A DNA stretch of 64,000 nt from Nitrospinota bacterium (GCA_046581755.1 JAYGFR010000031.1:5671-69670); one strand, 5' to 3'. Positions 10,750 to 56,718 are shown, numbered from the stretch's first letter. Numbers and translations: made by a program. The notes: generated by a model from the sequence alone, not told the origin.

Positions 10750-11022
10750 ATGAACGATCAAACCGACTTCCGGAAATTCTACCGCGACGCCCACGCCACC
10801 GCGCTTCTGACCGACCGCGAGAAAAAACTCATCGGCATCGCGGTCGCCATCGTCCGAAACTGCCAACCCTGAGTGGACCACCGCCTGGCGGCCGCCGGGA
10901 AAGCCGATATCCCAGAAGAGGTGCTGGACGCCACGTTCGATCTCACCACCGCGGTGATGGCCGGAATCGGACAGAGCATGAACCGGCGCTACAAGGATTC
11001 CCTGAAACCGAAAGAGGGGTAG
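10750..11022 (+). CDS. AhpD-like (carboxymuconolactone-decarboxylase family) selenoprotein, 90 aa, with selenocysteine at codon 41 (TGA 10870-10872)
   Basis: Not present in the ORF track. An ATG at 10750 has an AAGGAGA RBS 6 nt upstream. The hand translation is MNDQTDFRKFYRDAHATALLTDREKKLIGIAVAIVRNCQP-U-VDHRLAAAGKADIPEEVLDATFDLTTAVMAGIGQSMNRRYKDSLKPKEG. The AhpD/CMD catalytic motif C-x-x-C-x-x-x-H is present with its second Cys replaced by TGA. It ends at TAG 11020-11022. Confidence 0.7.
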
Positions 11023-11035
11023 CGGGCGGGGAGGG

Positions 11036-11704
11036 CTAGCGGACCTCGGCGCGGAGAACGTAGACATGGCGGGCGAGGGATTCCACTAGGCGGGAGGGAT
11101 CGAAATCCCGGGGAGTGGTGATCTGGACCCGTACCCGCATCGGGCCGCCTTCGGGATCTTTTTTCACGTCCATCTCCCGGATATCGCAGCGCTCCTTGGA
11201 AAGAATGTCCTCGAGCTCCTGGAACATCTCTTCCTCCTCCCCGCCGTTTGCCACAATTTCCAGAAGCTTGAAGCGGCGCCGCCCGGAAATTCGACGGCCG
11301 ACTTTTTTGAGCAGGCCCAGCGAAACCAGCATGATCACCACCACCGACACAGCCTCGACGTGGAGGCCCACTCCCACGGCCAGGCCGATCCCCGCCGTGG
11401 TCCAAATGCTCGCCGCCGTGGTCAGCCCCCGCACCGAAGCGCCCATCCGGAGGATGGCGCCCGCCCCCAAAAAACCGATGCCGCTGACGACCTGGGCCGC
11501 GATGCGGCCGGGGTCGTTCGTGGGACTCCCCTCGGCCACGCGCATGGAGACTTCCATGAGCAGGGCGGAGCCGAGGCAGAGGATGATATGGGTGCGAAGA
11601 CCGGCGGGCTGATTGTTGCGCTCGCGCTCCAGCCCGATGAGGCCGCCGAGGAAGGCGGCCTCGATCATGCGGAAAATGAATCCGATTTGGTCGGGGAGGA
11701 TCAA
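11036..11704 (-). CDS. MgtC/SapB-family membrane protein
   Basis: 222 aa with an N-terminal MgtC domain (…LGGLIGLERE…GIGFLGAGAI…) and a C-terminal soluble domain. Confidence 0.8.
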   Translation of the reverse strand: MILPDQIGFIFRMIEAAFLGGLIGLERERNNQPAGLRTHIILCLGSALLMEVSMRVAEGSPTNDPGRIAAQVVSGIGFLGAGAILRMGASVRGLTTAASIWTTAGIGLAVGVGLHVEAVSVVVIMLVSLGLLKKVGRRISGRRRFKLLEIVANGGEEEEMFQELEDILSKERCDIREMDVKKDPEGGPMRVRVQITTPRDFDPSRLVESLARHVYVLRAEVR

Positions 11705-11705
11705 C

Positions 11706-12332
11706 CTATTTTTTCCCGTGTGGGTTCGGGCGCGCTTTGCGCCGGGAAATTTCTTTTTTGATTTCCGCCTTGGATTTTCCGTTCACCGGGATGCCGAACA
11801 CCTCGCCCACCTTGGTCTGCTTGTCGAGCAGGCGCATAAACGCGAGATCCTCGATCTCGGCGAGCACCATCTCGCAGGTGCTGAATATGGTGCACCCCTC
11901 GACGAGATGGCCGCCGAAGCAGGTCGCCTCGGGTCGGCCCATCGAAATCGTGACGTGGGCATGAAGATAGGGCTTGCCGTCCTCGGTCTGGGTGATGTTG
12001 CCGCTCATCTGAAGAAGCTCGAGCGGGCCCTCGATGGGAGTGAAGATGCGGCAGTCGTTGTTGATGGGCCAGGGGTTGGGAAACTGCCATACGTTGCGAA
12101 GCGTCGCCCTCCGAAGGCTCGCCGCCACGCTGAGGATCACGCCCGCCTTCACCCCCCGCTCCGCGCAAATTTTCAGGGTCGTGCCGTACAAATCGTCGCC
12201 CGGGGCCATCCGGATCGTCAGCACGCGCCCGAGGCGCGCCTCCGCCACATCGTAACGGGGCGTGCGCTTCTTCCAGTCGGTTTCGTCGAAAATCACCTCT
12301 TGTGCTTGAGCGAATTTTTTTGTCGCCATCAA
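11706..12332 (-). CDS. PPC-domain (DUF296) protein
   Basis: 208 aa with a DUF296/PCC-like core (…LELLQMSGNI…HAHVTIS…). Confidence 0.6.
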   Translation of the reverse strand: MMATKKFAQAQEVIFDETDWKKRTPRYDVAEARLGRVLTIRMAPGDDLYGTTLKICAERGVKAGVILSVAASLRRATLRNVWQFPNPWPINNDCRIFTPIEGPLELLQMSGNITQTEDGKPYLHAHVTISMGRPEATCFGGHLVEGCTIFSTCEMVLAEIEDLAFMRLLDKQTKVGEVFGIPVNGKSKAEIKKEISRRKARPNPHGKK

Positions 12333-12498
12333 CCGTTCCTCTCCTCAAATTGATTCGCATCCCGCGGGATGGAAATTGCGATCGCCTCAAACCGTCCAGC
12401 CATTCGTGTGTCCGTTTATTCTAGCCCCCCGGATTCTAATCCCAAGCCCGGGGGAATGAAAACCAAGGGCCGCCATCCCGCAGTCCCCATCGAGGAAC

Positions 12499-13815
12499 CT
12501 AATCCCCTCGGTCGAAGCGGACGATCCCGCCCGAAACCGTCGTCCGGACAATCGCCCCGGGACGGAAAATATCGGCGAGCGCCACCTCCGCGGCGCCGGG
12601 CGGGGGCGCGATGACGGCGAAATCCGCCACCCCGCCGGAGGTCAGCCGGCCCACCCCCTCGTCCGTGAACCCCAGGGCCCCGGCGCCGTTCACCGTGCAG
12701 ATTTCCAGGAGCGCATCCGCCGTCAGGCCCGGGTCCGCCTCCCAGAGCGCCGCCGCCTCATCGAGCAACGAGAGCGAAGGGCTGCTCGCCCGGCTGTCCG
12801 TTCCGAGGCAGAGCCGGAGACCGGCACGCCGCATCCCGGCGGCATCGGCGAAAGGATGCCCGAAATAGGCGGTCGACCGGGGACACAGGCAAACCACCGC
12901 CCCGGCGCGCGTGAGAAGCTCCCAATCCTCCTCGTCCGTCTGGTTGCAGTGGACCGCCAGATCGATGTCCTCCAGGACCCCCGCATCGGCCAGGTAGCGC
13001 ACGGGCGAGCAGCCCGGCGGATCGAAGCCGTTGACCGCGCTCTCCAACGCTTTGTGCATTTCGGCGAACGCGCCGCCACCGTCCTTGAGGAACCGCACCT
13101 CTTCGGGGCTTTCGGCCAGATGGGTGGCCGAGGGCCAGGTCCGACCGCGCGCCTCCTCGAGCGCCAAGCGGTAGAGCGGAATCGATGTCGTGTAGGGCGC
13201 ATGGGGACTGACCCCATCCCTGAGAAATTCCGCCCCGCCACCGGTCTCGCCACCAGTCTCGAACACCCCATCCGCGGAGGGAAGCCTTTGGCGGACAATC
13301 GAATCCGCCTCGGCAGGGGCCAGCCCCAGCACCTCGCTGAACACCACCCCGCGCATCTCCATGAACGATAGGATCACCCGGCTGTGGCCCGAGGCCGAAA
13401 TATCTCCCACACAGGTGACGCCCGAGCCAAACGATGCGATCGCGCCGAGCCGGGAGGAGGAGAGAAAAAGAGGGGGCGGCCAGCCGCGCGTCTCGCGGAC
13501 CAGGGCCACGATCCACTCGGCCATCGGCGCGCGCGTGGCCTCGAATCCGCTCAGCTCGAGGTGGGTGTGGGCGTTCACGAGACCTGGGACGAGAACCGCC
13601 CTTCCGAAATTCCGCTCGGGAACCAGCGGCCCCTTGGGGCGGACCTCCGCCTCCGGGCCCACCGCTTCGATGCGGCCGCCCCGGGTGAGGACCGCTCCGC
13701 CGCGAATGGGCGGGCTCCCGGCCGGGCACACGAGATCGGCCCGCCAGAGGTTTTGTCTTCGAGAGGGGGTCTGCTCCGCGCGGTTTCCGTTTTCCGGGCC
13801 GCTAGCTGAGCTCAT
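12499..13815 (-). CDS. Amidohydrolase-family deaminase (candidate aminodeoxyfutalosine deaminase / MTA-SAH deaminase-like)
   Basis: 438 aa with metal-binding HxH (…VNAHTHLELS…) and a downstream HCNQ…D motif. It is co-oriented with the adjacent MqnC/MqnE radical-SAM gene. Confidence 0.65.
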   Translation of the reverse strand: MSSASGPENGNRAEQTPSRRQNLWRADLVCPAGSPPIRGGAVLTRGGRIEAVGPEAEVRPKGPLVPERNFGRAVLVPGLVNAHTHLELSGFEATRAPMAEWIVALVRETRGWPPPLFLSSSRLGAIASFGSGVTCVGDISASGHSRVILSFMEMRGVVFSEVLGLAPAEADSIVRQRLPSADGVFETGGETGGGAEFLRDGVSPHAPYTTSIPLYRLALEEARGRTWPSATHLAESPEEVRFLKDGGGAFAEMHKALESAVNGFDPPGCSPVRYLADAGVLEDIDLAVHCNQTDEEDWELLTRAGAVVCLCPRSTAYFGHPFADAAGMRRAGLRLCLGTDSRASSPSLSLLDEAAALWEADPGLTADALLEICTVNGAGALGFTDEGVGRLTSGGVADFAVIAPPPGAAEVALADIFRPGAIVRTTVSGGIVRFDRGD

Positions 13816-14047
13816 GATATTTGCGCGGCCTCAGGAAACCCGTGCCCGGACCCTTCCCGAACCGGTAGGCCGCGCGCCGGAGACTGGCCAGGTCATGTTC
13901 CCAGCGCCAATCGTTGACCTGGAGCCTTGTTCTCAGGCGGCCCGACTCCCACGCACACATGGCGGCGTAGGCGATCACGAGAGCAACGCCCCAACCGGGG
14001 AGGATCAATAAGAGGATTAAACCGAGAACGACGGACAAGGAAGCCAT
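13802..14047 (-). CDS. Small hydrophobic protein (hypothetical)
   Basis: 81-aa ORF that exactly fills the gap between the radical-SAM gene and the amidohydrolase. It has one or two TM helices. Confidence 0.3.
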   Translation of the reverse strand: MASLSVVLGLILLLILPGWGVALVIAYAAMCAWESGRLRTRLQVNDWRWEHDLASLRRAAYRFGKGPGTGFLRPRKYHELS

Positions 14048-14049
14048 GA

Positions 14050-15231
14050 TCAGATCAACTCATAGAAAAAATTTCGCCGCCGGAGGGTGAAGCCCGCGGC
14101 CCCGGCCATGCGGTGAAGATCGGCTTCGTTCAGGCAATGGACCGTACCCGCCGAGCTTACCACGTTCTCCTCCAACATGGTCGAGCCCATGTCGTTCGCC
14201 CCGAAGCGCAGCGAAAGCTCGCCCACCTTCATCCCCTGGGTCACCCAGGAGGATTGGATGTTCTCGAAGTTGTCCAGGTAGAGGCGGCTGATGGCCAGGG
14301 TGCGCAGATACTCGCTGCTGCCCACCGTCTGCGCCTTGAGCGCCGCCGATCCGTCGTTCTGGAACGTCCAGCAGATAAACGCCGTGAACCCGCCGGTCTC
14401 GTCCTGGAGCTCCCGGAGGCGGTCCAGGTGTTCGATCCGCTCGGCGGGGGTTTCGACGTGGCCGAACATCATCGTCGCCGACGAGCGAAGGCCCAGCCGG
14501 TGCGCCTGGCGCATTACGTCGAGCCAGCCATCCGAATCCACCTTGAGGCGCGCGATTTGGCGCCGGACCCGGTCCACCAGAATCTCGCCGCCCCCGCCCG
14601 GTATCGAATCGAGGCCCGCCTCCCGGAGGCGGACGATCACCCGCTCGTAGGGAATGTCCTCGAGCTTGGAGATATGGTGAATCTCGGGCGGGCTCAGCGC
14701 GTGGAGATGGAGATCCGGATACTCCATCTTCAGCCAGCGGAACAGATCTTCGTACCATTCGATCCGAAGGTCCGGGTGATGCCCTCCCTGGAGGAGGATC
14801 TGCTTCCCGCCAGCGGCATAGAGCTCGTCCAGCTTTTGGCGAATCTCCTCCTTGGTGCGGATGTAGGCCTCGGGGTGATCCCCGGGCGGGCGGTAGAAGG
14901 CGCAGAAGGTGCAATAGACATCGCAGACATTCGTGTAGTTAATGTTGCGGTCGATGCAGTAGGTGGCAAAACCTTCGGGGTGCTTTCGGGCGCGGACCTC
15001 ATCCGCCGCCGCGCCCAGGGCGGGCAGATCGTCTCCCTCGAGCAGGGCCAGGCCCTCCTCCATCGAGAGCCGCTCGCCCCCGGCTGCTTTTTCCAGCGCC
15101 TCGTAAAACGCCGATGTCGCCGTCGTCATGATTTCCTCGGATCCGGTCGCCCGGGGTGATATGGAGCGGGGAGTATACGGGGGTTTCCCCATCCGGGCGA
15201 GGGTGGGCATCCTCCCGCCAATTGTTGACAA
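14050..15231 (-). CDS. Radical-SAM menaquinone (futalosine pathway) enzyme, MqnC/MqnE family
   Basis: CxxxCxFCAF radical-SAM motif (…NYTNVCDVYCTFCAFYR…). The likely true start is the internal Met at about 15129 (MTTATSAFYEAL…). It is a paralog of the gene at 19946..21094. Confidence 0.8.
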   Translation of the reverse strand: MSTIGGRMPTLARMGKPPYTPRSISPRATGSEEIMTTATSAFYEALEKAAGGERLSMEEGLALLEGDDLPALGAAADEVRARKHPEGFATYCIDRNINYTNVCDVYCTFCAFYRPPGDHPEAYIRTKEEIRQKLDELYAAGGKQILLQGGHHPDLRIEWYEDLFRWLKMEYPDLHLHALSPPEIHHISKLEDIPYERVIVRLREAGLDSIPGGGGEILVDRVRRQIARLKVDSDGWLDVMRQAHRLGLRSSATMMFGHVETPAERIEHLDRLRELQDETGGFTAFICWTFQNDGSAALKAQTVGSSEYLRTLAISRLYLDNFENIQSSWVTQGMKVGELSLRFGANDMGSTMLEENVVSSAGTVHCLNEADLHRMAGAAGFTLRRRNFFYELI

Positions 15232-15255
15232 GTCCAGATATTGGGACTATATAAT
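15225..15255 (+). promoter_or_regulatory. Near-consensus sigma70-type promoter (TTGACA-17 nt-TATATAAT)
   Basis: TTGACA at 15225-15230 and TATATAAT at 15248-15255. No ORF follows for about 360 nt. Confidence 0.35.
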
Positions 15256-15618
15256 CTTAATATAAAAGCGCTACCCCCAGCCGGGGTCACCCGGCCCCTC
15301 CTCGAATCGGACCATCTGGTACACGCGCCGGTGCCCCTACACCGCCCTGCCCCGGCGGGAAATTCATTCATCCCATCTCCCCCGCCGGGGTGTTGCCCGC
15401 CGGGGTCTTGGAAAAGCATCCTCCATTCTTCTTCCCCTTGGCCATTTATTTCCATACCCGCACTCAAGCTCCCACCACCACACTCCCCTTGCACCACTCC
15501 TCCCAGCCACCACACCTCCCCGAACGCACCGTCCCGCAGCCGGCAGGTTCAAATTTCCCGGTTTTCGCCCCCTTGACGCACATAAAAATTATATATATAT
15601 TGTATATACTTTTTATTT

Positions 15619-15876
15619 ATGGGGATACTTGCCGTGGCCACCCAGATTGGAAAGTGGGGAAACAGCTTGGCCGTCAGGATTCCATCCGCCCTGGCGGAGC
15701 AATTCGGCTTGAAGGAAGGCTCTCCGGTGGAGATCATTACCGACGACCGGGGGCTCCTGGTCCGGAAGCCCGGCTACCGGCTGGAGGATCTCCTCGCGGG
15801 CATCACCCCCGAAAACCTGCCCCAAGAGCCTTCTCCCGGCCCGGCCGTGGGAGGTACGGACGGGGGAGGCGGATGA
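15619..15876 (+). CDS. mazE: AbrB/MazE/SpoVT-family antitoxin
   Basis: 85 aa with a KWGNSLAVRIP swapped-hairpin motif. An AT-rich promoter-like stretch lies immediately upstream. Confidence 0.7.
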   Translation: MGILAVATQIGKWGNSLAVRIPSALAEQFGLKEGSPVEIITDDRGLLVRKPGYRLEDLLAGITPENLPQEPSPGPAVGGTDGGGG

Positions 15877-16199
15877 GATCCGGTCTCGTCCCGGATCGCG
15901 GCGACATCCTCTTCCTGGATGGGGGCGCCGGACAGCGCGGCCGGGCCCCGGCTCTCATCGTCTCGCCCCGGGCCTACAACCGCGCCACCGGCCTTGCGCT
16001 CGCCTGTCCCATTATTCAAACCCCCGGGGGCTATCCGTTCGAGGTGCTCCTCCCCGGCAACCTGGGCATCGCCGGAGCGGTCCTCGCCGACCGGCCCCAA
16101 AGCCTCGACTGGCGCTCCCGCCGCCCCGAATTCGCCGCCCACGCCCCCAAGGCCGTCCTCGAGGAAATCGCCGCGAAGATAGCCATCTTGCTTGAGTGA
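15873..16199 (+). CDS. mazF: MazF/PemK-family endoribonuclease toxin
   Basis: The start ATG at 15873 forms an ATGA overlap with the antitoxin stop. 108 aa (RGDILFLDGGAGQRGRAPALIVS…). Confidence 0.7.
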   Translation: MRSGLVPDRGDILFLDGGAGQRGRAPALIVSPRAYNRATGLALACPIIQTPGGYPFEVLLPGNLGIAGAVLADRPQSLDWRSRRPEFAAHAPKAVLEEIAAKIAILLE

Positions 16200-16309
16200 G
16201 GGGGGGGGGATACCCATCAGATTTCATCAATATGATCACACACGGATATCCATTGCACCCGGATGGCGGGACGCCGGGGGTCGTGCGGAAGTATCGGGCC
16301 GGGCCGGCG

Positions 16310-16852
16310 CTAGATACTAATCACCTTCCCGTTGAGCTTGATCTCGCTTTTGAGCGGGACGGCGGCCTGGACCATGGCTTCGGCGAAACACCCCTGCTTG
16401 GCGTTTTTGATGAGGGCGAGGACGCGCTCCTCGGGGGCGTCGGATTCGACGGTGAAGTACGTCCGGGTTTCGAGGCATTCGGCTTTCACGGTGCCCCTCA
16501 GGACGGAGCCGGAGAGAAGGTAGTCCATCTCGACGCGGACCTTGCTGCTCTTGTATTCGATTTTCATCATGCTCGCGTACCGCGAGAGTTGGGTGAGCAG
16601 TCAGAAGCCGACTCCCATGCAGATGTAGGTGAGGGGCTGGGGGTGCTCGTCCTTTCCGCCCAGATCGGCGGGCTCGTCGCACATGACCTCGAAGTGGCGG
16701 TGTCGGCCGACCTTGAGCTGGGAGCCCGGGGGCGCCTCGGTGTCGGCGAACTGCTTGACCAGAAGGCCCTGCCGGGGGAGCTCGGGTTTGTCGATCACCC
16801 GCTCGCCGGGGGCGGTGCTCATGTCGCGGTGGAGGAGGGGCTTATCGTTCAT
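16310..16852 (-). CDS. OsmC/Ohr-like peroxiredoxin-family selenoprotein, copy 1 (Sec encoded by TGA at 16603-16601)
   Basis: Track ORFs 16601..16945 and 16310..16570 are in the same frame and separated only by TGA. The joined protein of about 180 aa reads …PQPLTYICMGVGF-U-LLTQLSRYASMMKIEYK…NAKQGCFAEAM…. Sec sits at the first catalytic Cys of OsmC, and the second Cys is retained. The start was set at MNDKPLL (16852). Confidence 0.7.
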
Positions 16853-16889
16853 GGGACGCCTCTTCAAGAAAAAGGAATTGGAGCTGGGC

Positions 16890-18311
16890 TCATCCGACCG
16901 GCGGCCGAAGCGCCCGGATTTCCGGGGTCGCACTCTCGTAGGCATGGGCGCACCGGAGCGCGGCGGCCTCGCGCCAGGGGGCGGTGACGATGTCGAGCGA
17001 AAGGGGCAGGCCGATTTTGTTCAGCCCCATGGGCACGACCAGCGAGGGGCAGCCGGTCATGTTGTGGCAGGAGAGAAACGGGCGGTGGAGGTAGCTGAAG
17101 GGAAGGTCTCGCCCGTTCATCTCGGCCATCAGGGTTTCGATGGGCGGGGCGGCGCAGGGGACCGAGGGCATGATCATGGCGTCGGCATCTTTTAAAAACG
17201 CGGCCGCCTCGCGCCGGAGCAGGACCCGCTCTCGCATGGCGTGGACATAATCGTCCAGCGGAATCTGGGCCGACCACTCGTAGCGCTCGCGCACGTCGTC
17301 TCCATAGCCATCGGGGTTTTCCTCGTAATACGGCCGGTGAAACGCGGCGAACTCGGGCCCGGCGATCTTGGGAAACAGCTCCCCGAAGCGGCCGGCGTTC
17401 GGGAAGGAGACCTCCTCGATATTCGCGCCCAGATCCCGGAACACAATCGCCGCACGGGCGAAGGCCTCTAAAATCTCGGAGTCCACCTCGGAGTTAGAGT
17501 AAAAATCAGGACAAATAAAAATCCGGCTGCCCGCGACGCCCTTGTCGATCCCCTCGGTGTAATCGGGCACGGAAACGTCCCGCGTTTTCGAATCCAGCGG
17601 ATCGAAACCGGCCATGACGTTCAGGAACATCGCCGCGTCTTTTGCGCTGCGCGTCATCGGGCCGCAATGGTCCAGGCTCAGGACGTTCGGGCAGATCCCC
17701 CGGATGCTCACCCGCCCGTGGGTGGGCTTGAGGCCGACGATGCCGCAAAAGGCCGCCGGGGTGCGCACCGATCCGCCCGTGTCGGTGCCCAGCGCGGCGG
17801 GGATCATGCCCGCCGAGACCGCCGCCGCCGAGCCGCCGCTCGAGCCGCCGACGATACGATCCGGGTTCCAGGGATTGTGCGAGGTGCCCCAGTGGGGGTT
17901 GATGGTGGTCGATGCGGCGGCGAACTCGTGGGTATGGGTCTTCCCGATCAGGATGGCCCCGGCCCGCTTGAGGCGGGCGATGACTTCGGCGTCCTCTGCG
18001 GGCACGTTGTCCCGGTGGAACGATGATCCGTTCGTGGTGCGGATTCCGGCGGTGTCGATGATGTCCTTCGCACCGTAGGGGATGCCGTGCAGGGGGCCCC
18101 GATAGCGGCCCGCGGCGATTTCGTCTCCGGCCCGCCGGGCCTCCTCCATCGCCAGCTCGCCCGTGACGGTCAAAAAGCCCAGGTACTCTTCGTTCAGCGC
18201 CTCGATGCGCCCCAGGAGGGCCTCGACGATTTCGGCCGGGGAGAGAGAGCGGTTTTTAATTTTCCCGGAGAGCTCGAATACGCTCAAATCGCAAAGGGCA
18301 TCATCCACCAC
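16890..18311 (-). CDS. Amidase-signature family amidase (GatA-like)
   Basis: GGSSGGS amidase signature. A probable GTG start at about 18311 is preceded by GGGAGGA. It lies directly upstream of, and is co-oriented with, OsmC-like selenoprotein copy 1. Confidence 0.8.
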   Translation of the reverse strand: MVDDALCDLSVFELSGKIKNRSLSPAEIVEALLGRIEALNEEYLGFLTVTGELAMEEARRAGDEIAAGRYRGPLHGIPYGAKDIIDTAGIRTTNGSSFHRDNVPAEDAEVIARLKRAGAILIGKTHTHEFAAASTTINPHWGTSHNPWNPDRIVGGSSGGSAAAVSAGMIPAALGTDTGGSVRTPAAFCGIVGLKPTHGRVSIRGICPNVLSLDHCGPMTRSAKDAAMFLNVMAGFDPLDSKTRDVSVPDYTEGIDKGVAGSRIFICPDFYSNSEVDSEILEAFARAAIVFRDLGANIEEVSFPNAGRFGELFPKIAGPEFAAFHRPYYEENPDGYGDDVRERYEWSAQIPLDDYVHAMRERVLLRREAAAFLKDADAMIMPSVPCAAPPIETLMAEMNGRDLPFSYLHRPFLSCHNMTGCPSLVVPMGLNKIGLPLSLDIVTAPWREAAALRCAHAYESATPEIRALRPPVG

Positions 18312-18340
18312 GGCAGCCACTCCTCCCAGATTTTGGCTGG

Positions 18341-19157: not shown

Positions 19158-19964
19158 CTACTCTTCCATTCTGGCCCGGTCCGCCTCCCACCCCCCGGGG
19201 GCGAGGCCGTCCTCGGCGAGATATGCGTAGTAGCGCCGGAGGCCCTCTTCCTCATCCGCCCCCACATCGTAGCGGATACAGTTCGTCAGGTAATCCCTCG
19301 CCGTGGCCTCGTCGATATAGGGCAGCTCCCGGGCGGCCCGGGCGATGATCTCATCCAGGCGGCGGACGCCCTCTTCCTTCGCCTCCCGGAGCAGGCGGCA
19401 GGCCCCGGCGTCTCCGGCCCTCGGCCGGAACAACCAGACCGCATAGAGAAACGGCAGGCCGGTGAACTCCGTCCACACCCCGCCCAGGTCGATGAGGTCG
19501 AGGCCGCCCGCCTCCTCGCGCAGGGCGTTGTCGCCGATGAGGAGGAAGGCATCGAGAGATTTGTCTTCGCGCGGCGGGCGCCGGGGATCGATGGACACGA
19601 ATTCGGGCGCGGCGCCCCATTTCCGGGAGATGATGACACGCGCCATGTTGGCGGCCGAAAGGGACCAGGCGTCCAGGCCGACGCGCCGGAGCTCCCCGGG
19701 CGGCTTCCGGCAGAACAGGCGGATGCTCTTCACCCGCCCCCGGCTGGCAATCCCCACGCCGGGCACATAGCGGGCCCCGGGCAGATGAAACATCGCGAAG
19801 GAGGAAACCAGCGCGGCATCCACCCCGCCCTCCTCGAGCAGGGGCAACAGCCGCGCGGGGGGCTCGGCGCGGAGTTCCACCTCCGCCCGGTTTTCGAGGG
19901 CGAGAGTGAGAGGAACCGCGTTGAGGAAGGGAACCGTACCGAGCTTCAGGCCTTGACCGCCCAT
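19158..19964 (-). CDS. mqnA: Chorismate dehydratase MqnA (futalosine pathway)
   Basis: 268 aa with an N-terminal LGTVPFLNAVPL motif of the MqnA/MqnD family. Confidence 0.65.
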   Translation of the reverse strand: MGGQGLKLGTVPFLNAVPLTLALENRAEVELRAEPPARLLPLLEEGGVDAALVSSFAMFHLPGARYVPGVGIASRGRVKSIRLFCRKPPGELRRVGLDAWSLSAANMARVIISRKWGAAPEFVSIDPRRPPREDKSLDAFLLIGDNALREEAGGLDLIDLGGVWTEFTGLPFLYAVWLFRPRAGDAGACRLLREAKEEGVRRLDEIIARAARELPYIDEATARDYLTNCIRYDVGADEEEGLRRYYAYLAEDGLAPGGWEADRARMEE

Positions 19965-21094
19965 GTATCTCCCAGGCGCTTCACCTCGCGGTAGAGCGTG
20001 TCGCGCTCGACGGGCCTGCGGCCCACCTCTTCGATGATGCGGCGAATCTCGTCCACGCCGATTTCCTGCGGCGTCTGGGCGCCGGCCATGTGATAGATCT
20101 TCTCCTGGACGACGGTTCCGTCGATATCGTCCACCCCGAAGCGCTGGCTGATCTGCGCGATGGGCACACCGACCATGATCCAGTAGGCCTTGATGTGATC
20201 GATGTTGTCGAGAAGGAGCCGGGCGGCGGCGTAGTTGCGGATATCGAGCAGCCCGCCCGGGCCGGGCACGTCCGCCATTTGCGAATTATCCGGGTGAAAG
20301 GCGAGCGGGATGAACGTCGTGAAGCCGCCCGTCTCGTCCTGAAGCTCGCGGAGCCGCAGCATGTGGTCCACCCGGTCCTCGTCGGTTTCGACGTGGCCGT
20401 AGAGCATGGTGCAGGAGCTCCGGAGGCCCATGCCGTGGGCGATGCGGTGGACATCGAGCCAATCCTCGGCGGATTGTTTTCCCTTGCAGATGACAGAGCG
20501 CGTGGGCTCGGCGAAAATCTCCGCCCCACCACCCGTGAGCGAGCCCAGCCCCGCCCGCACCAGCGCCCCCAGCGTCTCCTCGACGCTCATCTTCGCGACA
20601 TGGTCCGCCAGCCAGCGGATCTCGGTGGAGGTGAAGATTTTGAGGTGGAGATGGGGGTGAATCTCCTTGATGCCGTGGATCATCTCCAGGTAGTAATCGA
20701 AGGGAAGGTCCGGGTGCAACCCGCCCACCATGTGAAACTCGGTGCGCCCCTTGCCGAGGCCCTCGGCCATCTTGAATATTTCTTCGAGCGAGTAGGCGTA
20801 GGCGCCCTCCTGGCCCTCTTTTCTGGCGAACGCGCAGAACTTGCACGCCTTCCAGAGAACGCAGACGTTCGAGTAATTGATGTGGCTGTTGACGTTGTAG
20901 TAGGTGGCGTCCCCGTGCATGCGCTCTCGCACGAGGTTCGCCATGTGGCCGAGGCCGGCGATGTCATCCGTCCGGTAGAGGCGCACCCCCTCCTCGAACG
21001 AGAGCCGCTCGCCCGCCTCCACCTTCTCGAAAATATCCGCCAACGGCCCGCGCCGGAGCCGCCGGGCCATGAATGTTTCAGTCATCGAACCCAC
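19946..21094 (-). CDS. Radical-SAM MqnE/MqnC-family enzyme (aminofutalosine synthase or cyclic dehypoxanthinyl-futalosine synthase)
   Basis: 382 aa with …NYSNVCVLWKACKFCAF…. It overlaps the mqnA start by 19 nt. Confidence 0.8.
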   Translation of the reverse strand: MGSMTETFMARRLRRGPLADIFEKVEAGERLSFEEGVRLYRTDDIAGLGHMANLVRERMHGDATYYNVNSHINYSNVCVLWKACKFCAFARKEGQEGAYAYSLEEIFKMAEGLGKGRTEFHMVGGLHPDLPFDYYLEMIHGIKEIHPHLHLKIFTSTEIRWLADHVAKMSVEETLGALVRAGLGSLTGGGAEIFAEPTRSVICKGKQSAEDWLDVHRIAHGMGLRSSCTMLYGHVETDEDRVDHMLRLRELQDETGGFTTFIPLAFHPDNSQMADVPGPGGLLDIRNYAAARLLLDNIDHIKAYWIMVGVPIAQISQRFGVDDIDGTVVQEKIYHMAGAQTPQEIGVDEIRRIIEEVGRRPVERDTLYREVKRLGDTWAVKA

Positions 21095-21453: not shown

Positions 21454-21501
21454 AGGAGAATCTCCTTTCAGGAATGGGAGAGCGTTTCCGGCGGGCGGCC
21501 T

Positions 21502-22718: not shown

Positions 22719-24161
22719 CTACGAATCCATCTTATCGGAGGTTCTTCTTCCCTTACTGACTCTCCGCTCTTCTTCGATCGTTCTCCGCTCATTTCCGTAC
22801 CTGCGCCAAGCCCTTCGCCGGTCAATTTTGAAGGAGGATCGCATCAGCCAGCCCCGGACGCGCGATCGGAGGCCGGAGACGGCGAATTCTTTCGTCATGT
22901 AGTCGGTCGCCCCCGCCGCGAAGCACTCCAGGACATCGTTCTGCTCAAACCGCTTTCCGGTGACAACGATGATGGCCACGTCGTTTAGGTCGGGATTCTC
23001 ATTCCCCCGGATGGCCCGGCAGACGTCGAGTCCGTGCATTCCGGGAAGCTCCAAGTCCAGGAGGATCAGGTCCGGCAGCTCATCGCATGCGACCTTCACC
23101 GCCTCCTTCCCATCGTAGGCATGGAGAAACCTGATTCCTTCTTCTTCCTGAAGGGTGGCTTCCAGGAGCCGGTTCATTTGGCGATCGTCGTCCACGATGA
23201 GAACTTTCTTTTCCCGCTCCGGCGACGATCCCGCGAGCAGGGCGGAATCTTTTTTTGAAACGACCGGAATCTTGGCCTTGGGATCCTCGGCCAGTTCGAT
23301 GACCAGATTGTCCTCCGCCGCGAACACCTCGGGAACGAATTCGGCCCCGTTCGCCCTTTGCCGGGCCTTTTCGACCAACTCGTCCATCTCCTCGTCGTTT
23401 CGAAGCGGGTCGTGGTGGAAAAGCGCCAGCCGCTTGGCGCGGGCGGCAATGGCATAGTCCACCACTTTTTCATAGGGCGAGTGGCCCCAGCCCACCTTGG
23501 AGGAATATTCCTCGAGGGTGTATTGCGCATCGTGGATGATCAGATCGGCACCTTCCATGAATTTAACGTGGTCCTGGTCTTCATGATGAATGGGAAATAC
23601 GCCGATCTCGGAGCCCATCGAATGAAGCGAGTGGGGTTCATGGTCCGGAATGTAGACGATTTTCACCCCTCCGGTTTCGAGGGCATAACACAAAGTGAGA
23701 GAGGGATGATTTGTGTAGCATGCGGAAACATGCACGCCATCGACATCGAAAACCCCCTCGCCCAGGTCCATGAACTTCACCGTCGCGCCGAGCGAATCGA
23801 GATTGACGGGAAAATAGCTGTAGATCATCTGTCCCGAGAGGGTATTGCTCAACTCTTGGCCCATTCTCCTGGGCCCGTATATGTTCACCTCGTTTCCGGG
23901 AACGAAAAGAGGGGCGAAAAACGGGAAACCCTGGATGTGATCCCAATGGGTATGGGTGATCAGGAGGTTGGCTTTTATCGGATTCTCGCCCGATCTCATC
24001 ATCTCCTGACCCAGGTCGTGAATTCCCGTCCCGCAGTCGAAAATGATGCGCCTTCCATCATCCATCAGGACCTGCACGCAGGACGTATTTCCGCCATACC
24101 GAAGCGTGCTCAGACCCGGTTTCGCCAATGAACCGCGAACCCCCCAAAAACGAACTTGCAC
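22719..24161 (-). CDS. MBL-fold metallo-hydrolase fused to a C-terminal response-regulator receiver domain
   Basis: 480 aa. It has an N-terminal HxHxDH motif (THTHWDHIQG) and a C-terminal receiver (…VLIVDDD…DLILLDLELPGMHG…). Confidence 0.75.
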   Translation of the reverse strand: MQVRFWGVRGSLAKPGLSTLRYGGNTSCVQVLMDDGRRIIFDCGTGIHDLGQEMMRSGENPIKANLLITHTHWDHIQGFPFFAPLFVPGNEVNIYGPRRMGQELSNTLSGQMIYSYFPVNLDSLGATVKFMDLGEGVFDVDGVHVSACYTNHPSLTLCYALETGGVKIVYIPDHEPHSLHSMGSEIGVFPIHHEDQDHVKFMEGADLIIHDAQYTLEEYSSKVGWGHSPYEKVVDYAIAARAKRLALFHHDPLRNDEEMDELVEKARQRANGAEFVPEVFAAEDNLVIELAEDPKAKIPVVSKKDSALLAGSSPEREKKVLIVDDDRQMNRLLEATLQEEEGIRFLHAYDGKEAVKVACDELPDLILLDLELPGMHGLDVCRAIRGNENPDLNDVAIIVVTGKRFEQNDVLECFAAGATDYMTKEFAVSGLRSRVRGWLMRSSFKIDRRRAWRRYGNERRTIEEERRVSKGRRTSDKMDS

Positions 24162-27229: not shown

Positions 27230-28093
27230 CTATTTCGCCGCGGCCCTGGCTTCTTCCTCTTCCTTCATCCGTTTCAGGAACACGGGCGCGGGAGTGTCCG
27301 GGCGCCACTTGGTCTGATCCGGAGGCTCGGGCCACTCATAGGGAAGATGGACATACGTATTCGGCCCCTTCGCCGATTCGAGCAAATCGGCCATGCCGCC
27401 GCAGATTCTCCGCTGCCCCTCGCGGTCGCCCACATCTCCAATCTGGCGGCCGAAGGGATACTGGATAAACGCGGCGCGCGGGACGGCGACCTTCTCCGTC
27501 ATCCCGGGCACGTTGCTGAGAGAAACCGTGGCGATTCCCGCCCTTTCGATTTCGCGCTGAAGCAGTCCGCCGGACCGGATGCAAAGCGGTCAGACGGGAA
27601 TGAGAAAAACCGCATCCACCTTCTCGGACTTCATTTTTTCGACCATCAGCGGCGCCGTGCGCTTGATCAGCGGGTTGAAGTTGGGGATGTAGCCCATGAT
27701 GGAATAGAGCGTATCGGCGAGGCTCCCGATTTTTCCCTCGCTCTCGTAGTCGTTGAAAATGTCCACCGGCCAGGCCACGTTCCGGTCCTTGGCCATAAAG
27801 CTCGTGTCGATGTGCAGATGGCTGTACTCCACATCGTCCTGGCCCGCCGTTCGCGGAATCTCTCGGTGGCTGGGGTCGCCCCAGGTCGGCTCGGCCCGCT
27901 CACGATCATAGTCGAACGACACATCCCCTTTCGCAAAGATTCCGGCCGTGGAAACCAGCGTCACGCGGCATTCCGAAAGCGGCTTGGAGAGCGGCGTCCA
28001 GGGCGTTTCCGCCGGGTCGTTGGCCCGCATTTGCTCGATACGATCCTTTTGCCCGGGGTGAAAAAACAAACTGTCGACTTTCGTGATCGCCAT
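27230..28093 (-). CDS. Glycine/sarcosine/betaine/D-proline-reductase protein-B (GrdB/PrdB) family selenoprotein, with Sec at TGA 27592-27590
   Basis: Track ORFs 27590..28177 and 27230..27511 are in the same frame. Hand translation across the gap gives …EKVDAVFLIPV-U-PLC-IRSGGLLQREIERAGIATVSLSNV…. This contains the U-x-x-C motif followed by the RSxxxxQRxIExAGI segment, as in PrdB (…TAGUGTCHRSAVIVQRAIEEAGIPT…). The start is at Met29 (ATG 28093, RBS AAGGAGA). 287 aa. Confidence 0.75.
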
Positions 28094-31397: not shown

Positions 31398-31589
31398 GCG
31401 CCCCGCCGCCTGGAATTGATCCCCACTTTCTTCATTTTAATGCCCCGGGTTCCCGGATCGGGACCACATAAAATTATTGGACGCGATAACCCGCCGGGAA
31501 TAGAGCGGAAGCGACCGGGCGCTTGAAAATGATCTGAACCTGCCGAACCATGCCGGCGCAAACGACATCACCGAAACAATCCTGAACGG

Positions 31590-32050
31590 GCGGGCAGAAC
31601 GAAAATTCGCGGCCCTTGGCGCATCTGCCCGAAAATTCTCCCGGACGGGACGGAAACGATGGAGGGCGAATCTGCGCACGCCCCTCACCCAACCCTCTCC
31701 CGGCGGATGGGAGGTGGAGTCCACCTCCACCCGCCGAACATGGTTCGAGCGGGGCAAGGGAGAGGGCGTTGCTCAATGATCCTCCCCGCAATTACCTGAA
31801 AATTCGGACAGGAGGGCTCGAAAAGAGAGTGTGCAAAATTGTGCGCACCTCGGCGCATTTGCCCGAAAATCCTGGAAGACCATTGAAAATGGGGGAGCGC
31901 GAAATTGCGCGCGCCTTGGCGCATCTGCCCGAAAATTATCCCGGAACACCCCGAAAAGAGGACTGGCGAATCTGTGTGCGCCTTGGCGCATTTGCCCGAA
32001 TCTCCCGGCGGATTGCGCTGGAGCGTTTCGAAATATTCGCCCGAGGGGGG
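31590..32050. repeat. Intergenic array of about 4 degenerate 55-60-bp direct repeats with internal hairpin-forming palindromes
   Basis: The unit is approximately GCG(C)GAAAT(T/C)TG(C/T)GCGC(G/A)CCTTGGCGCAT(C/T)TGCCCGAAAAT(T/C)(A/C)TCCCGG. Copies start near 31592, 31836, 31900 and 31960. The overlapping track ORFs with recurring AHLPEN peptides are artefacts of the repeat. Confidence 0.6.
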
Positions 32051-32091
32051 GGATCCGCCGGAATCCGGACGCGCCAGAGGAGACAGCGATA

Positions 32092-48379: not shown

Positions 48380-48516
48380 GCCAGATAATCCCGAATCGAT
48401 CAGAGCGTTTGATGTAGGACCGCAGAGTAACCCTACAAGTATGGTCGGGTGGGTTCTTCGGTGTCAACGGTAGGGCTATGGTATATTGAGGCGGCCATAA
48501 AGGAGGGATTCGGCGA

Positions 48517-49890: not shown

Positions 49891-49902
49891 ATACCTCCCA
49901 CG

Positions 49903-50331: not shown

Positions 50332-50352
50332 AAATTTCCCCCCTGGCGCCGG

Positions 50353-51219
50353 TCAAGAACCGCCTCCACCTCCCCGGGGTACGGCGAGAACCAGCGCCGG
50401 CACAATTCTTCCAGCCAAGAAAGTCAAATATCCATCTCCCTGAACCACCAACTGGGAACTCGACCCCCCATCGAGGTTCATCGCCTCAATTGCCCCCAGG
50501 CCGCCATCCGGCTCGGAGCGGACCAAAAAATTCTGAAGTTCGCACCAGGAGATCCCGCGCCCGATTTCCTCGCTCACCATGAAAATGAGGCGCCCTTTTT
50601 CCCCGAATGCCAAGATCGTCCGCCTGTCCGCTCGGCGGTACTCGCGGTATGCGTCCAGCCCGGGGTCGGGCCGCCCCCCGCGCACGAGATAGGGGCCGGC
50701 CTGAAACGCCTCCCGAACCCCTTTCGAATCGAAATCCTCGCGGGTTGCGATACCCACCTTTCCGGAACCTTTCAAGACGTAAAAAACCGCTCCCAAGTGA
50801 AGCGCCCGCCGCCGTCCCCGGAAAAGAAGGCGGCTGTTGAAAATCGTATCGGCCGTGCGGAAGTAGCCGAGCGGCCTTCCTTTTTCGTCGAAATATCCCG
50901 CGTTCACCACAACGGCGGCCTTGGTCATCTGCGCAATTATGCGCACGGCCTCGGACCTTATATTTTTGCCCGCCTGCCACCTGAGCCGAATATCGAATTG
51001 ATCCGGATCGAGCCGCGCCGCGGTCATCCTTGAGGTGGTGCCATCCTCGAAACGGATTTGAATCTTTCTGACTTCCATCCCCGGGCCAATGGTGCGCCAA
51101 GTGTTTATTCCGCCTACCAAGCGGGTCTTACAGCCATCTTCCGAAGCATGGGCGGTGGCAACGGCGGCGATGAAAATCGCCGCCGCGAAGGACAACCCGG
51201 CATTCCGGAATTTGACCAC
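50353..51219 (-). CDS. Phosphodiester-glycosidase-family (DUF2233, NAGPA-like) secreted protein
   Basis: A signal peptide and a C-terminal …NLDGGSSSQL… motif. Confidence 0.55.
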   Translation of the reverse strand: MVKFRNAGLSFAAAIFIAAVATAHASEDGCKTRLVGGINTWRTIGPGMEVRKIQIRFEDGTTSRMTAARLDPDQFDIRLRWQAGKNIRSEAVRIIAQMTKAAVVVNAGYFDEKGRPLGYFRTADTIFNSRLLFRGRRRALHLGAVFYVLKGSGKVGIATREDFDSKGVREAFQAGPYLVRGGRPDPGLDAYREYRRADRRTILAFGEKGRLIFMVSEEIGRGISWCELQNFLVRSEPDGGLGAIEAMNLDGGSSSQLVVQGDGYLTFLAGRIVPALVLAVPRGGGGGS

Positions 51220-51282
51220 GGCCCCCCCCCCTTCGCTCCCTACCAGCGTATTATGAGCCTTTCCTGACGACGAAGCCCCCCG

Positions 51283-52953: not shown

Positions 52954-54017
52954 TAAAAAGAATCGGGGGGGGGTTGTCCCTTCAGGAACACGGACTCAAT
53001 ACATCTTTCGCCGTCCGGCGAGACGGCGAGGGCATCCGGCCCGACGATGCACCGCTCCAAGGATACCTTCTCCCCGACCTCCGCCCCAGGAAACAACACC
53101 GAATGTACGACCGAGGCGCCCTCGCCCAGAGTAGCACCGCCTCCCAAAACCGCGAAAGGGCCGGCGGAGGCTCCCCGGCCCAGGCGCACCCCTTTTCCGA
53201 TCAGAACGGGCGGATGGACCACGCCCCCGCCCCAATCCATGGAGGGCCCTTCCACCAGCACATCCCCTCCGGCGGGCCAATCCATCCCGGGGACAAACCG
53301 CCCGGCGAGCAGATCGTCTGCGGCATCCAGATACCGTGCCGGCGTGCCAACGTCGGCCCAGTAGGAATTCGTCACCAGCGCGCCGATGAGGGCGCCCCCT
53401 TCGATCAAGGGGGGATACACCTCCTCGGAAATCCCGCAAGGACGCCCCGGGGGGATGTGGTCGAGAAATTCTGGAGATAAAACGCTCTGCCCGGTAAACA
53501 TCCCCTCGGTCAGGGCGCCGGCGGGCTGGCCGGGCGCCTCGGCCCGGAGAAACCTCCGGAGCCGCCCCGCCTTATCCACGGCCAGTAGACCGAATTTTTC
53601 CGCTTCCGGCGACGTGCGCAAAACCAGTGTCGCCAGGAATCCGCCCGCCTGATGGCGGGCCAGCGCCACCTCCAGATCGGCATTGCTTATGATATCGGCG
53701 TTTAATACGAAAAACGGCCCGCCAGTCTCCCGCAGGAAGGCTTCCGCCTGTTTAATCCCACCCGCCGTTCCCAATATCTCGGGCTCGAACGAGTAGCGGA
53801 TCTCTACGCCACAGGCCGATTCCCCGAGTTCTGCCCGAATCGCCTCGGCCCGGTGATGGAGGTTCACGACGGCTTCCTTCACGCCCGCCCGGCGGAGCCT
53901 GTCCAGAGCAAACCGGATCACCGGCACGCCGCCCAGAGGCAAGAGCAGCTTGGGCACCGATTCGCCGAGCGAGCCCATCCGGACGCCGAGGCCCGCCGCT
54001 AGGACAAAAGCGCGCAT
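52953..54017 (-). CDS. Sugar-phosphate nucleotidyltransferase with a C-terminal left-handed beta-helix
   Basis: N-terminal LAAGLGVRMG…GGVPV nucleotidyltransferase motif and hexapeptide-like C-terminal repeats. Confidence 0.7.
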   Translation of the reverse strand: MRAFVLAAGLGVRMGSLGESVPKLLLPLGGVPVIRFALDRLRRAGVKEAVVNLHHRAEAIRAELGESACGVEIRYSFEPEILGTAGGIKQAEAFLRETGGPFFVLNADIISNADLEVALARHQAGGFLATLVLRTSPEAEKFGLLAVDKAGRLRRFLRAEAPGQPAGALTEGMFTGQSVLSPEFLDHIPPGRPCGISEEVYPPLIEGGALIGALVTNSYWADVGTPARYLDAADDLLAGRFVPGMDWPAGGDVLVEGPSMDWGGGVVHPPVLIGKGVRLGRGASAGPFAVLGGGATLGEGASVVHSVLFPGAEVGEKVSLERCIVGPDALAVSPDGERCIESVFLKGQPPPDSF

Positions 54018-54192
54018 CGCCAGCCCAAAATGAACCTCTCCAAATGGCGGCGAACGATTTCATGCCACAGGCACCCCGCCCGGCCGAAAGCAATGGCGCA
54101 ATTTCTTTCAATCGGCATGGGTCAAAGCCGCCTGTCCGGGGGGGGCGAATGTGAAAAGATGGATTCGCACGGACGGCCGCTGGACCGGTGTC

Positions 54193-55098
54193 TTAATCGG
54201 AGGAATTCCCGTTTTTCCTGCGGCGGAAGAACGATTGGATCTCATCCGCAAGCTCTTCGCCCGAGGGCAACTCCTCGGGTTCCGTGCCTTGGGCTTCCTC
54301 GTCTTCGTCCAGGTCCTTCTTGGCCCGGGTATTCCACAGATCCGTCTGGGAGAGAAGGCGAGCAATTCCGGGCCGATCTTCGATGGCTTCCTTTATCTGG
54401 GAATCAAACTGATCCACCGACTTTTGCAGTTCGCTCAGGTCGAACCGAACCTCTCCAGTGGCCCCGAGACGATCCAGAAGGGCATGAGCCGCCTTTGGAT
54501 TCGGCAGCGAGGAGATGTAATGCGGGATATTGGCCCAAAGGCTCACCGCCGGAATCCGCGCATTCTGGAACTGGGTATGAATCACGCCCACGATGCCGGT
54601 CGGACCCTCGTATTTGGTTGCCGCCACCCCGGTGCGATCCGCCAGGCTGGGGTCGGTCGCCAGGCAAACCAATTCGGGCGGTTCGGTGTGGGACAGTCCT
54701 GCCAGCAAGGCACCCATGGTCACCGCCAGGCGCGATTTGCACACCTGGACAAGTTCGAGAACATCCTGGCTGAACGTCTTCCACCTGAGTTGCGGCTCCA
54801 CACCGACGCACACCACCAGGTCGCGCGATAGGTCCGGATGCTTGCAATAATAAAACGCGTTCTCGGGCCAGGAGATCTTACGGTTTCCATCCCTATCGAG
54901 CCGGACGAGGGGCCGTTGGTCCGAATACTGAAAAAATTCATCCGGTCCAAACCACGCGAAGCGCTTGCCTCTGTATTGATTGATCAGGAACCGCGCGGCG
55001 ATGGTCGCCGACCGGGCGGCATCGTTCCATCCCTCAAAAGCCAGAACAAACATCGGATCGCGGAGTTCTGGAAGGATCTCGATGTGAAGATTTTTCAT
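54193..55098 (-). CDS. PAC2-family (proteasome-assembly-chaperone-like) protein
   Basis: 301 aa. Its composition is PAC2/DUF75-like, and it has an acidic C-terminus. Confidence 0.5.
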   Translation of the reverse strand: MKNLHIEILPELRDPMFVLAFEGWNDAARSATIAARFLINQYRGKRFAWFGPDEFFQYSDQRPLVRLDRDGNRKISWPENAFYYCKHPDLSRDLVVCVGVEPQLRWKTFSQDVLELVQVCKSRLAVTMGALLAGLSHTEPPELVCLATDPSLADRTGVAATKYEGPTGIVGVIHTQFQNARIPAVSLWANIPHYISSLPNPKAAHALLDRLGATGEVRFDLSELQKSVDQFDSQIKEAIEDRPGIARLLSQTDLWNTRAKKDLDEDEEAQGTEPEELPSGEELADEIQSFFRRRKNGNSSD

Positions 55099-55249
55099 TG
55101 TGGAATTCTCTCCGGATCAGGCAGCCGGCCGGTAACAGGCCCCATATCGGAATTTCATTTTACCCTCGGCTCCCGGCTCACCTCAAGGCAAGCCCGGGAA
55201 GAGGGCGGGCGAAACCCGCTATCTGACACCGGACATTCGCTTTCAGGAC

Positions 55250-56143
55250 CTATCCGGCCTGCCCCGAGGGATGCTCGCCGAGGGCGTCGTAAACGATCCC
55301 GACGCCGTTTTTCTGGAGCAAATAAGCCCTGTCGCCCAGGACGCGAGGATGCTCAAGGCCGGGTCGATCGATGTAATTCACCCGCTCCTGGACCTCCTCG
55401 CGACCGAGCCCGAGATCCTTGAGCTTCTTCACCTCCCCAATGACGTCGAACATCCTTTGCCGCTGGCGGGGAATTTCATCTTTCCGGCAAGGGCCGCCGT
55501 GTCCCGGCACGTACCAGTCCACGTCGAGGGATTCCAGCAAGGCGAGCGATTCGAACCACTCCCAGACCGCAGCCGAATGGAAGAAGGGATAATTGCCGGG
55601 GGTGATGTTGTCCGCCGTGAAGACAACGCGGGCCTCCACGGCGTGAACGACCGTCTGGCCCCGCGTGTGGCCGGGCGAGAATATGAGATGAAAGGTTTGG
55701 CCGCCGAGCCGAAGCGTCATCCGGCTGCGAAAAGTGATGTCCGGCCAGCGGATTTCGTACCCATCGAGGAGAGGCCCGCACTCGGGATCGTAAAACAGCA
55801 TGCGCTCCTTGGCCACCTCGACGGAGGGAAGCGAGGTCAGGAAGTCGGAATAGGTCACCTCGCTCGAAATGATCGTCCCTCCCCCCAGATACCAGTTCGA
55901 TGCGATGTGATCTTGATGATGTTCGGTGTTGATGTGGTAGCGGAGGGGCCCTTTCGAAGCAATGAAATCACGCCATTCGATCGCGTCGCTGGGCTTCATG
56001 GGGCCGTCGATGGCGACGACGCCCTCGGAGGTGATCACCATCCCCACTGTGGGGTAACGGTTCATGTAAAAAACCTGGTCGGTCAATGAGTCCATCGCTG
56101 CCTCACTGGGGGGCGGGAGAGCCGGATTTACAGGCGTGCCCAT
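55250..56143 (-). CDS. MBL-fold metallo-hydrolase
   Basis: HHQDHIAS motif. Confidence 0.7.
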   Translation of the reverse strand: MGTPVNPALPPPSEAAMDSLTDQVFYMNRYPTVGMVITSEGVVAIDGPMKPSDAIEWRDFIASKGPLRYHINTEHHQDHIASNWYLGGGTIISSEVTYSDFLTSLPSVEVAKERMLFYDPECGPLLDGYEIRWPDITFRSRMTLRLGGQTFHLIFSPGHTRGQTVVHAVEARVVFTADNITPGNYPFFHSAAVWEWFESLALLESLDVDWYVPGHGGPCRKDEIPRQRQRMFDVIGEVKKLKDLGLGREEVQERVNYIDRPGLEHPRVLGDRAYLLQKNGVGIVYDALGEHPSGQAG

Positions 56144-56163
56144 CCTCCCGTGCCGGCCCCCTG

Positions 56164-56718
56164 TTATCCTGAAATCCCTTCGAGCTCCAAGGGCTCGCCG
56201 TTCAGTTCGATTTCACTTTTGAGCGGGACGGATGACTGGATCATCCGCTCGGCGTAGCAACCCTGCTTGGCGTTCCGGATAAGCAGAGCGATCTTCTCGG
56301 GCGGGGCACCGCTTTCCACCCGGAAAATCGTTCGCGTCTCTGTGCACCCGGACTCGACCGTCCCCTTCAATACCGAACCACGCAAAAAATAGTCCATCTC
56401 CACCCGACAACTCGCCTTGGTGATCTCGATTTTCATCATGTGCGCGTACCGCGCCAGCTGGGTGAGCAGTCAGAAACCCACCCCCATGCAGATATAGGTG
56501 AGAGGCTGGGGATAGCAATCCTGCCCCCCGATTCGGGGCGGCTCATCGCAAAACACCTCGAACTTCTCCTTCCGCCCCACCTTGATCTGGCCGTCGCCGC
56601 TCCACTCGGTCTCCGCCCATTGGTAGGAAACCGTCCCTTGGGGCGGAAGCTCGGGCTTGTCGATGAGCCGCTCCCCGAGAACGGCACTGAGCTCTGTCGT
56701 CACTATCGGTTTTTCCAT
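56164..56718 (-). CDS. OsmC/Ohr-like selenoprotein, copy 2 (Sec encoded by TGA at 56472-56470)
   Basis: Track ORFs 56470..56754 and 56164..56439 are in the same frame and separated by TGA. The joined sequence is …PQPLTYICMGVGF-U-LLTQLARYAHMMKIEITK…NAKQGCYAERM…. This is the same architecture and TGA position as copy 1, with about 70 % identity. The start was set at MEKPIV (56718). Confidence 0.7.

Follow-up and report, generated by a model that had tools for sequence, protein, structure and literature searches.

The Sargasso Sea selenoproteome published in 2005 by Zhang, Fomenko & Gladyshev described PrdB, AhpD-like/CMD and OsmC-like proteins as selenoproteins, with selenocysteine (Sec, U) in the motifs UXXC, CXXU and UXXT, respectively (PMC1088965). 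More recently, the database BSepDB (2026), which holds only species possessing a Sec pathway, listed 54 selenoprotein genes for the metagenome-assembled genome (MAG) FO_M_Nitrospinota_01 of the GTDB phylum UBA8248, and 50 and 48 for two further UBA8248 MAGs, which places all three in the bacterial top ten (PMC13326102). Here we describe a stretch of 64,000 nucleotides (nt) from a Nitrospinota bacterium (GCA_046581755.1 JAYGFR010000031.1:5671-69670), referred to below as the window, in which four genes of these three families carry an in-frame TGA within the same three motifs. We conclude, with a probability of about 0.93, that this Nitrospinota-like bacterium decodes UGA as Sec in these four chromosomal genes at the position of a redox-active cysteine, by way of a standard bacterial selenocysteine insertion sequence (SECIS).

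An earlier note on this DNA had located the four genes and had read the TGA of each as a Sec codon in place of a redox-active Cys. The coordinates and the in-frame TGAs were borne out by translation, which gave exactly one internal TGA per gene in all four frames. A coding signal is present on both sides of each TGA, since the codon-usage log-odds, computed with a model trained on the long open reading frames of the 64-kb window, are positive on either side in all four genes. The predicted genes and their Sec codons are as follows.

10750..11022, + strand: gene for a small AhpD/CMD-like selenoprotein of 90 amino acids (aa), motif C38-Q-P-U41
10870..10872, + strand: Sec codon (UGA) of the AhpD-like gene
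16310..16852, - strand: OsmC-related selenoprotein gene 1, 180 aa, motif U84-L-L-T, second conserved Cys at 155
16601..16603, - strand: Sec codon (UGA) of OsmC gene 1
27230..28093, - strand: gene for a stand-alone PrdB/GrdB-like selenoprotein, 287 aa, motif U168-P-L-C
27590..27592, - strand: Sec codon (UGA) of the PrdB-like gene
56164..56718, - strand: OsmC-related selenoprotein gene 2, 184 aa, motif U-L-L-T
56470..56472, - strand: Sec codon (UGA) of OsmC gene 2

The residues that flank the TGA are RNCQP and VDH in the AhpD-like frame, GVGF and LLTQL in both OsmC frames, and FLIPV and PLCIRS in the PrdB-like frame. The ribosome-binding site AAGGAG stands 7 nt 5' of the AhpD-like ATG and 6 nt 5' of the PrdB-like ATG. 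The four genes are spaced 6-29 kb apart in unrelated contexts and do not form an island. With some 50 such genes in a genome of 3-4.5 Mb, about one would be expected per 64 kb, and the observed four amount to a few-fold excess (Poisson probability ~0.02). Scans for coding potential, for N- or C-terminal Sec and across all intergenic gaps returned no further credible Sec gene in the window; the in-frame TGA candidates at 23256 (+), 36019 (-), 57808 (-) and 56233 (+) were discarded, being either junk or shadows cast by real genes on the opposite strand.

Similar frames could arise if the organism read UGA as Trp or Gly under an alternative genetic code (translation tables 4 or 25), and ten AhpD-like homologues in the databases do read Trp at the site. 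These are the full-length ENA and JGI entries P0130-P0138 and P0140. For P0130, the entry that we checked, the DNA reads TGA on both contigs that carry it (L002:782-1054 and L003:620-892), which makes this Trp a product of gene calling; apparently the gene callers applied a UGA = Trp table to short contigs. Within the window, 53 genes were called with confidence and 21 of them end at TGA as an ordinary stop codon, and we can therefore exclude a code with sense UGA. The alignments described below, which place Cys rather than Trp or Gly opposite the TGA, and a GC content of 62% (61.7% over the window) speak against it as well, and we give this explanation practically no credence.

The assignment to known families is firmest for the two OsmC-related proteins, which are 61% identical to each other. 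The hidden Markov model (HMM) NF041052 for OsmC-related (seleno)proteins matches gene 1 with 153.5 bits and gene 2 with 159.5 bits, against a cut-off of 95, and the Pfam OsmC domain extends across the TGA in both genes. Among five full-length homologues, four have Cys in the TGA column (P0001, P0003, P0004 and P0005). Alignment with the PDB entries 3cje, 2opl and 1vla places ULLT on GC(V/L)xT, the first conserved Cys of these structures, and also matches the second conserved Cys (KQGCF against KKGCF). We find no essential difference between these proteins and the OsmC-like selenoprotein family of 2005 (NF041052): the HMM score, the UxxT at the first conserved Cys, the second Cys and a hairpin with a G in its loop are held in common, and the window adds two paralogues in a Nitrospinota-like lineage.

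The PrdB-like protein is matched by Pfam GRDB (PF07355) with 42.2 bits (gathering score 22), and this match stops four residues short of the TGA. The PrdB model TIGR04483 spans the TGA, covering profile positions 19-234 of 238, with 114.8 bits against an equivalog cut-off of 300. TIGR01918 gives 62.1 bits, slightly under its cut-off of 65.45. Rare full-length Cys forms of the protein (P0069, P0073 and P0074) have CPLCC opposite UPLC in the window, and the PDB contains no sequence relatives. The gene lies among genes for a Zn-dependent alcohol dehydrogenase, a short-chain dehydrogenase, DUF1207 and metallo-beta-lactamase-fold proteins, and no gene for PrdA, PrdC or GrdA was found near it. With the PrdB/GrdB selenoprotein B family the window protein shares UxxC at the family Sec position, a PrdB-like size and membership in a family that is overwhelmingly Sec-containing; it differs from the PrdB/GrdB systems in falling under both the PrdB equivalog and the TIGR01918 cut-offs and in having no partner genes. 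Judged by its sequence, the 287-aa protein is a stand-alone PrdB-like protein and not a proline reductase equivalog. Because of the low PrdB scores and the lack of a PrdA, PrdC or GrdA partner gene, its substrate is probably neither D-proline nor glycine.

Many Nitrospinota-like genomes, for example OZ244906.1, OZ251456.1 and OZ241875.1, contain two PrdB-like paralogues (loci L009-L068). Their motifs read UPLCNRSGG and UPLCMRSVS, and a hairpin in the same register is weaker in the UPLCMRSVS form.

The small AhpD-like protein is the most distant from its described relatives. Pfam CMD (PF02627) matches it with 21.6 bits, just under the gathering score of 23, and the scores with TIGR00778 (17.5 against a cut-off of 27.8) and NF041047 (21.8 against 110) are also too low for assignment. 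In NCBIfam it most resembles the AhpD domains of known selenoproteins, with scores that are all far under the cut-offs. When a query with Cys at the TGA site was aligned to PDB sequences, CQPU fell on CDAC, CDGC, CPGC and CDDC of 3bey, 7y4r, 5dik and 1vke, so that the Sec stands opposite the second of the two CxxC cysteines of CMD/AhpD proteins. Although the query contained Cys at this site, it is the flanking helix that anchors the alignment. The 22 database proteins and 29 loci that were compared include no Cys form of the protein. Like the AhpD-like/CMD selenoproteins with CxxU at the CxxC position (the GSU3128 family NF041047 and the AhpD domains of MduS and ArsM/AhpD), the CQPU protein is a small helical sequence of CMD type, and its UGA is followed at 11 nt by a SECIS-like hairpin; it differs from these families in falling under every curated cut-off and in having no close Cys homologue among the proteins and loci compared. 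Taken together, the alignments to conserved Cys residues support, for all four genes, the proposal in the earlier note that Sec is decoded at a redox-active Cys position.

The same four TGAs could also be nonsense mutations, marks of pseudogenes, or sequencing or assembly errors, in which case the genes would simply be broken. A TGA of this kind does occur in the window, in the following gene.

63255-63725, + strand: DUF3151 gene with a TGA at 63573-63575; the Pfam match spans the TGA

In most homologues of DUF3151 the TGA column is Trp, and three contigs at 99.1-99.3% nucleotide identity have TGG at this site. The window copy also has Pro at a nearly invariant His position (63517), and a hairpin scan detected no SECIS-like element after the TGA. 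On the grounds of the Trp column, the TGG in relatives and the missing hairpin, we rejected this codon as a fifth Sec site: it is a nonsense allele, a decaying gene or an assembly error, and it doubles as an internal negative control.

The four Sec candidates behave differently from a broken gene. Their TGAs are retained in contigs of about 99% nucleotide identity from several independent metagenomes of the same population, and we can therefore exclude sequencing error. All recovered OsmC relatives (L111-L118) keep the TGA. In the AhpD-like family, TGA follows NCQ[PSL] in 29 of 29 loci, 27 of them from a metagenome scan with the C-terminal halves of the alignment and two found earlier. A scan of one genome per species yielded 470 relatives of the PrdB-like protein, and in 79 of the 80 best loci a TGA occupies the same column and is followed by P-x-C and an intact frame of 115-138 codons; the remaining locus is frameshifted. 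These 80 loci are distributed over Nitrospinota, Tectomicrobia, Chloroflexota, Desulfobacterota and Acidobacteriota. Since each of the four TGAs in addition sits at a conserved Cys column and precedes a constrained hairpin, we consider the explanation by broken genes to have only a minute chance of being correct.

The hairpins behind the four TGAs provide the second line of evidence for Sec decoding. In the Escherichia coli fdhF-type SECIS, a minimal upper stem-loop is found about 11 nt past the UGA and presents G/U in its apical loop. The corresponding candidates in the window are listed here with approximate folding energies.

10884..10899, + strand: candidate SECIS of the AhpD-like gene, CCUGGC-GGCC-GCCGGG, 11 nt past the UGA, about -9.4 kcal/mol
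16572..16586, - strand: candidate SECIS of OsmC gene 1, CUCGCG-GUA-CGCGAG, 14 nt past the UGA, about -7.3 kcal/mol
27563..27577, - strand: candidate SECIS of the PrdB-like gene, CGGUCC-GGC-GGACUG, 12 nt past the UGA, about -6.0 kcal/mol
56442..56454, - strand: candidate SECIS of OsmC gene 2, GCGCG-GUA-CGCGC, 15 nt past the UGA, about -6.2 kcal/mol

The resemblance to the E. coli element consists in the distance of 11-15 nt from the UGA and in loops that begin with G, which is the first loop base in all four hairpins. The window hairpins differ from it in their shorter stems, in loops of 3-4 nt (GGCC, GGC and GUA) and in having no evident bulged U. Counted from the U of the UGA, the loops lie at nucleotides 21-26. 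The helix of the PrdB-like family starts at 11 nt, and its outermost pair is a C-C mismatch in the window. The window contains 1536 TGA trinucleotides, which provide a background: 15% are followed by any such hairpin and ~4-7% by one of comparable energy, against four of four candidates.

Comparison with homologues indicates that the hairpins are maintained as RNA. The AhpD-like hairpin is present in every distinct homologue. Over seven successive degenerate codons, from +4 to +10, the entropy of the third codon position is 0, against a mean of 1.15 bits elsewhere (22 distinct sequences), and the 21 nt of the putative SECIS are invariant except for one loop base. The region is clearly constrained at the nucleotide level. 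The 7-bp helix of the PrdB-like family is paired in 92.9% of cells across 28 homologues, and in at most 58.7% in controls in which the 3' arm was slid by 1-3 columns; compensatory double changes occur in four of its seven pairs, and the loop always opens with G. In the OsmC genes, pair 19-31 reads U-A, G-C, G-C and A-U over four Sec forms, a series that includes a change of Ser codon from AGC to UCC. In the one OsmC Cys form that we checked, the two outer pairs are broken and the loop G is lost.

In one PrdB-like Cys form (L121:1501-2400; TGC, CPLCC) most of the SECIS-like stem remains. This locus represents either a recent conversion from Sec to Cys or a stem that is partly imposed by the conserved R-S-V-G-L codons.

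Several observations weigh against Sec decoding or against the role given to the hairpins. The stems in the window are short (5-6 bp) and their energies modest (-6 to -9.4 kcal/mol), and when the 66 nt after each UGA are folded, OsmC gene 1 alone has a notable z-score (-2.26), those of the other three genes being not significant; the signal resides in short local hairpins. Conserved amino acids dictate part of each stem, and the Cys forms checked keep the CGCG core of the OsmC stem and most of the PrdB-like stem. At the protein level, the Sec column is occupied by Leu in one full-length OsmC homologue, and for the AhpD-like protein the statement that Sec substitutes a Cys rests on distant PDB homologues, no close Cys form having been found. 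Finally, a search through essentially all called genes of the 64-kb window found no selA, selB or selD and no YedE/YedF domain, and neither ARAGORN, which found no tRNA, nor Rfam, which found no RNA gene, places a tRNA-Sec there. The 601-aa GTPase encoded at 56999-58804 is TypA/BipA and not SelB.

With the Sec machinery lying outside the window and hence not seen, one might suppose that it has been lost, and that UGA is read through by near-cognate Trp or Cys tRNA or that the two halves of each protein are made separately. Some of the downstream halves do have start codons that are recognized by gene callers. This explanation is hard to reconcile with the frozen synonymous sites and compensatory pairs past the UGA, which point to an RNA element that is under selection and lies at the distance canonical for a SECIS, and with the OsmC Pfam domain, which covers both halves. 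Furthermore, the closest genome is catalogued among organisms with a Sec pathway (PMC13326102). We therefore regard readthrough or separate synthesis as very improbable and retain Sec decoding as the explanation for the four genes.

The identity of this closest genome follows from the PrdB-like gene, whose best genome match is FO_M_Nitrospinota_01 (L004) at 84% aa identity; the close matches that follow include other MAGs of Nitrospinota. We assign the window to an uncultured bacterium that is Nitrospinota-like and belongs to the GTDB lineage UBA8248 or close to it. The extensive selenoproteome that the earlier note had postulated for this organism agrees with the 54 selenoprotein genes published for this nearest MAG (PMC13326102).

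Sec decoding in this organism would proceed as follows. The hairpin with its loop G at 11-15 nt past the UGA would act as SECIS and be bound by the complex of SelB, GTP and Sec-tRNA(Sec), and this complex would bring Sec to the ribosome in place of release factor 2. In the finished proteins, Sec would replace the nucleophilic or redox-active Cys of thiol-based oxidoreductase folds. Binding of SelB to the hairpins is inferred, as are a set of selA/B/C/D genes in another part of the genome and a peroxidase or reductase activity of the encoded proteins.

We also examined how relatives of the four genes are represented in databases, because the earlier note had predicted truncated or split annotations. 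This prediction was confirmed for entries of the PrdB-like, OsmC and AhpD-like families. Most of the best 120 PrdB-like entries are 166-168 aa long and end at the Sec codon; several of these short entries are NCBI proteins from MAGs under the name 'selenoprotein B family protein'. Two proteins of the window, looked up by their exact sequences, had no entry on record. On a 99%-identical JGI contig, reached via a homologue, the PrdB-like gene is cut into a product of 167 aa and one of 90 aa without Pfam match. OsmC relatives are called as halves of 99 and 91 aa or of 103 and 92 aa without Pfam match, and a third as 71 and 101 aa with a weak OsmC match in the second half. Contigs that are near-identical to the region of OsmC gene 2 (L112-L117) have the gene split at the TGA. 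Among AhpD-like relatives, some entries consist of 49 aa and are named 'hypothetical protein'.

The accompanying claim that these families are not part of standard gene-calling pipelines holds in part. For the OsmC-related and GrdB/PrdB families it is overstated, since NCBIfam, which is used by the NCBI annotation pipeline, contains selenoprotein-aware models for both of them and for several AhpD-domain selenoproteins; the small AhpD-like protein of the window alone falls under all curated cut-offs. The practical value of the four genes lies in annotation, where the artefacts to be recognized are truncation at the Sec codon, split 'hypothetical' halves and full-length products with a false Trp. 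For a Nitrospinota-like lineage already known to be among the bacteria richest in selenoproteins, the window also supplies compact SECIS hairpins that can serve as clear examples. It holds no new biology in kind, as the families, the Sec motifs and the large selenoproteome of the lineage have all been published.

The CQPU AhpD-like subfamily is the only element of the window that may have escaped cataloguing. Because no Cys member was found, no HMM cut-off is reached and the putative SECIS is unusually frozen, the 90-aa CQPU protein might form a distinct subfamily of the AhpD fold that is always a selenoprotein, an idea that we put forward as doubtful. If the CQPU protein were missing from current selenoprotein catalogues, it would constitute a new small marine or sediment selenoprotein family.

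The surroundings of the two OsmC genes are dissimilar. OsmC gene 1 follows an amidase gene at a distance of 37 nt and in the same orientation, and OsmC gene 2 lies upstream of a metallo-beta-lactamase-fold gene, again in the same orientation. The amidase gene directly upstream of OsmC gene 1 (16890-18320) has a paralogue in the window at 60311-61729. A toxin-antitoxin pair of the MazE/MazF (PemK) type at 15619-16199 (+) adjoins the 3' end of OsmC gene 1 and is followed by a run of ten G at 16200-16209.

Two further features of the window were recorded. A region of 700 nt at 31398-32091 is free of gene calls in our own map and in the JGI calls on a syntenic contig, and Rfam gave no match to it even at E<=1. 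It contains a 50-nt direct repeat in four copies with the core GCGC.CCTTGGCGCATYTGCCCGAAAAT, the last three of which are spaced 66-67 nt apart. Elsewhere in the window, two radical SAM genes of CofH/MqnC type and a VitK2_biosynth gene, at 14050-15210 (-), 19158-19964 (-) and 19946-21094 (-), suggest that the organism makes menaquinone by the futalosine route.

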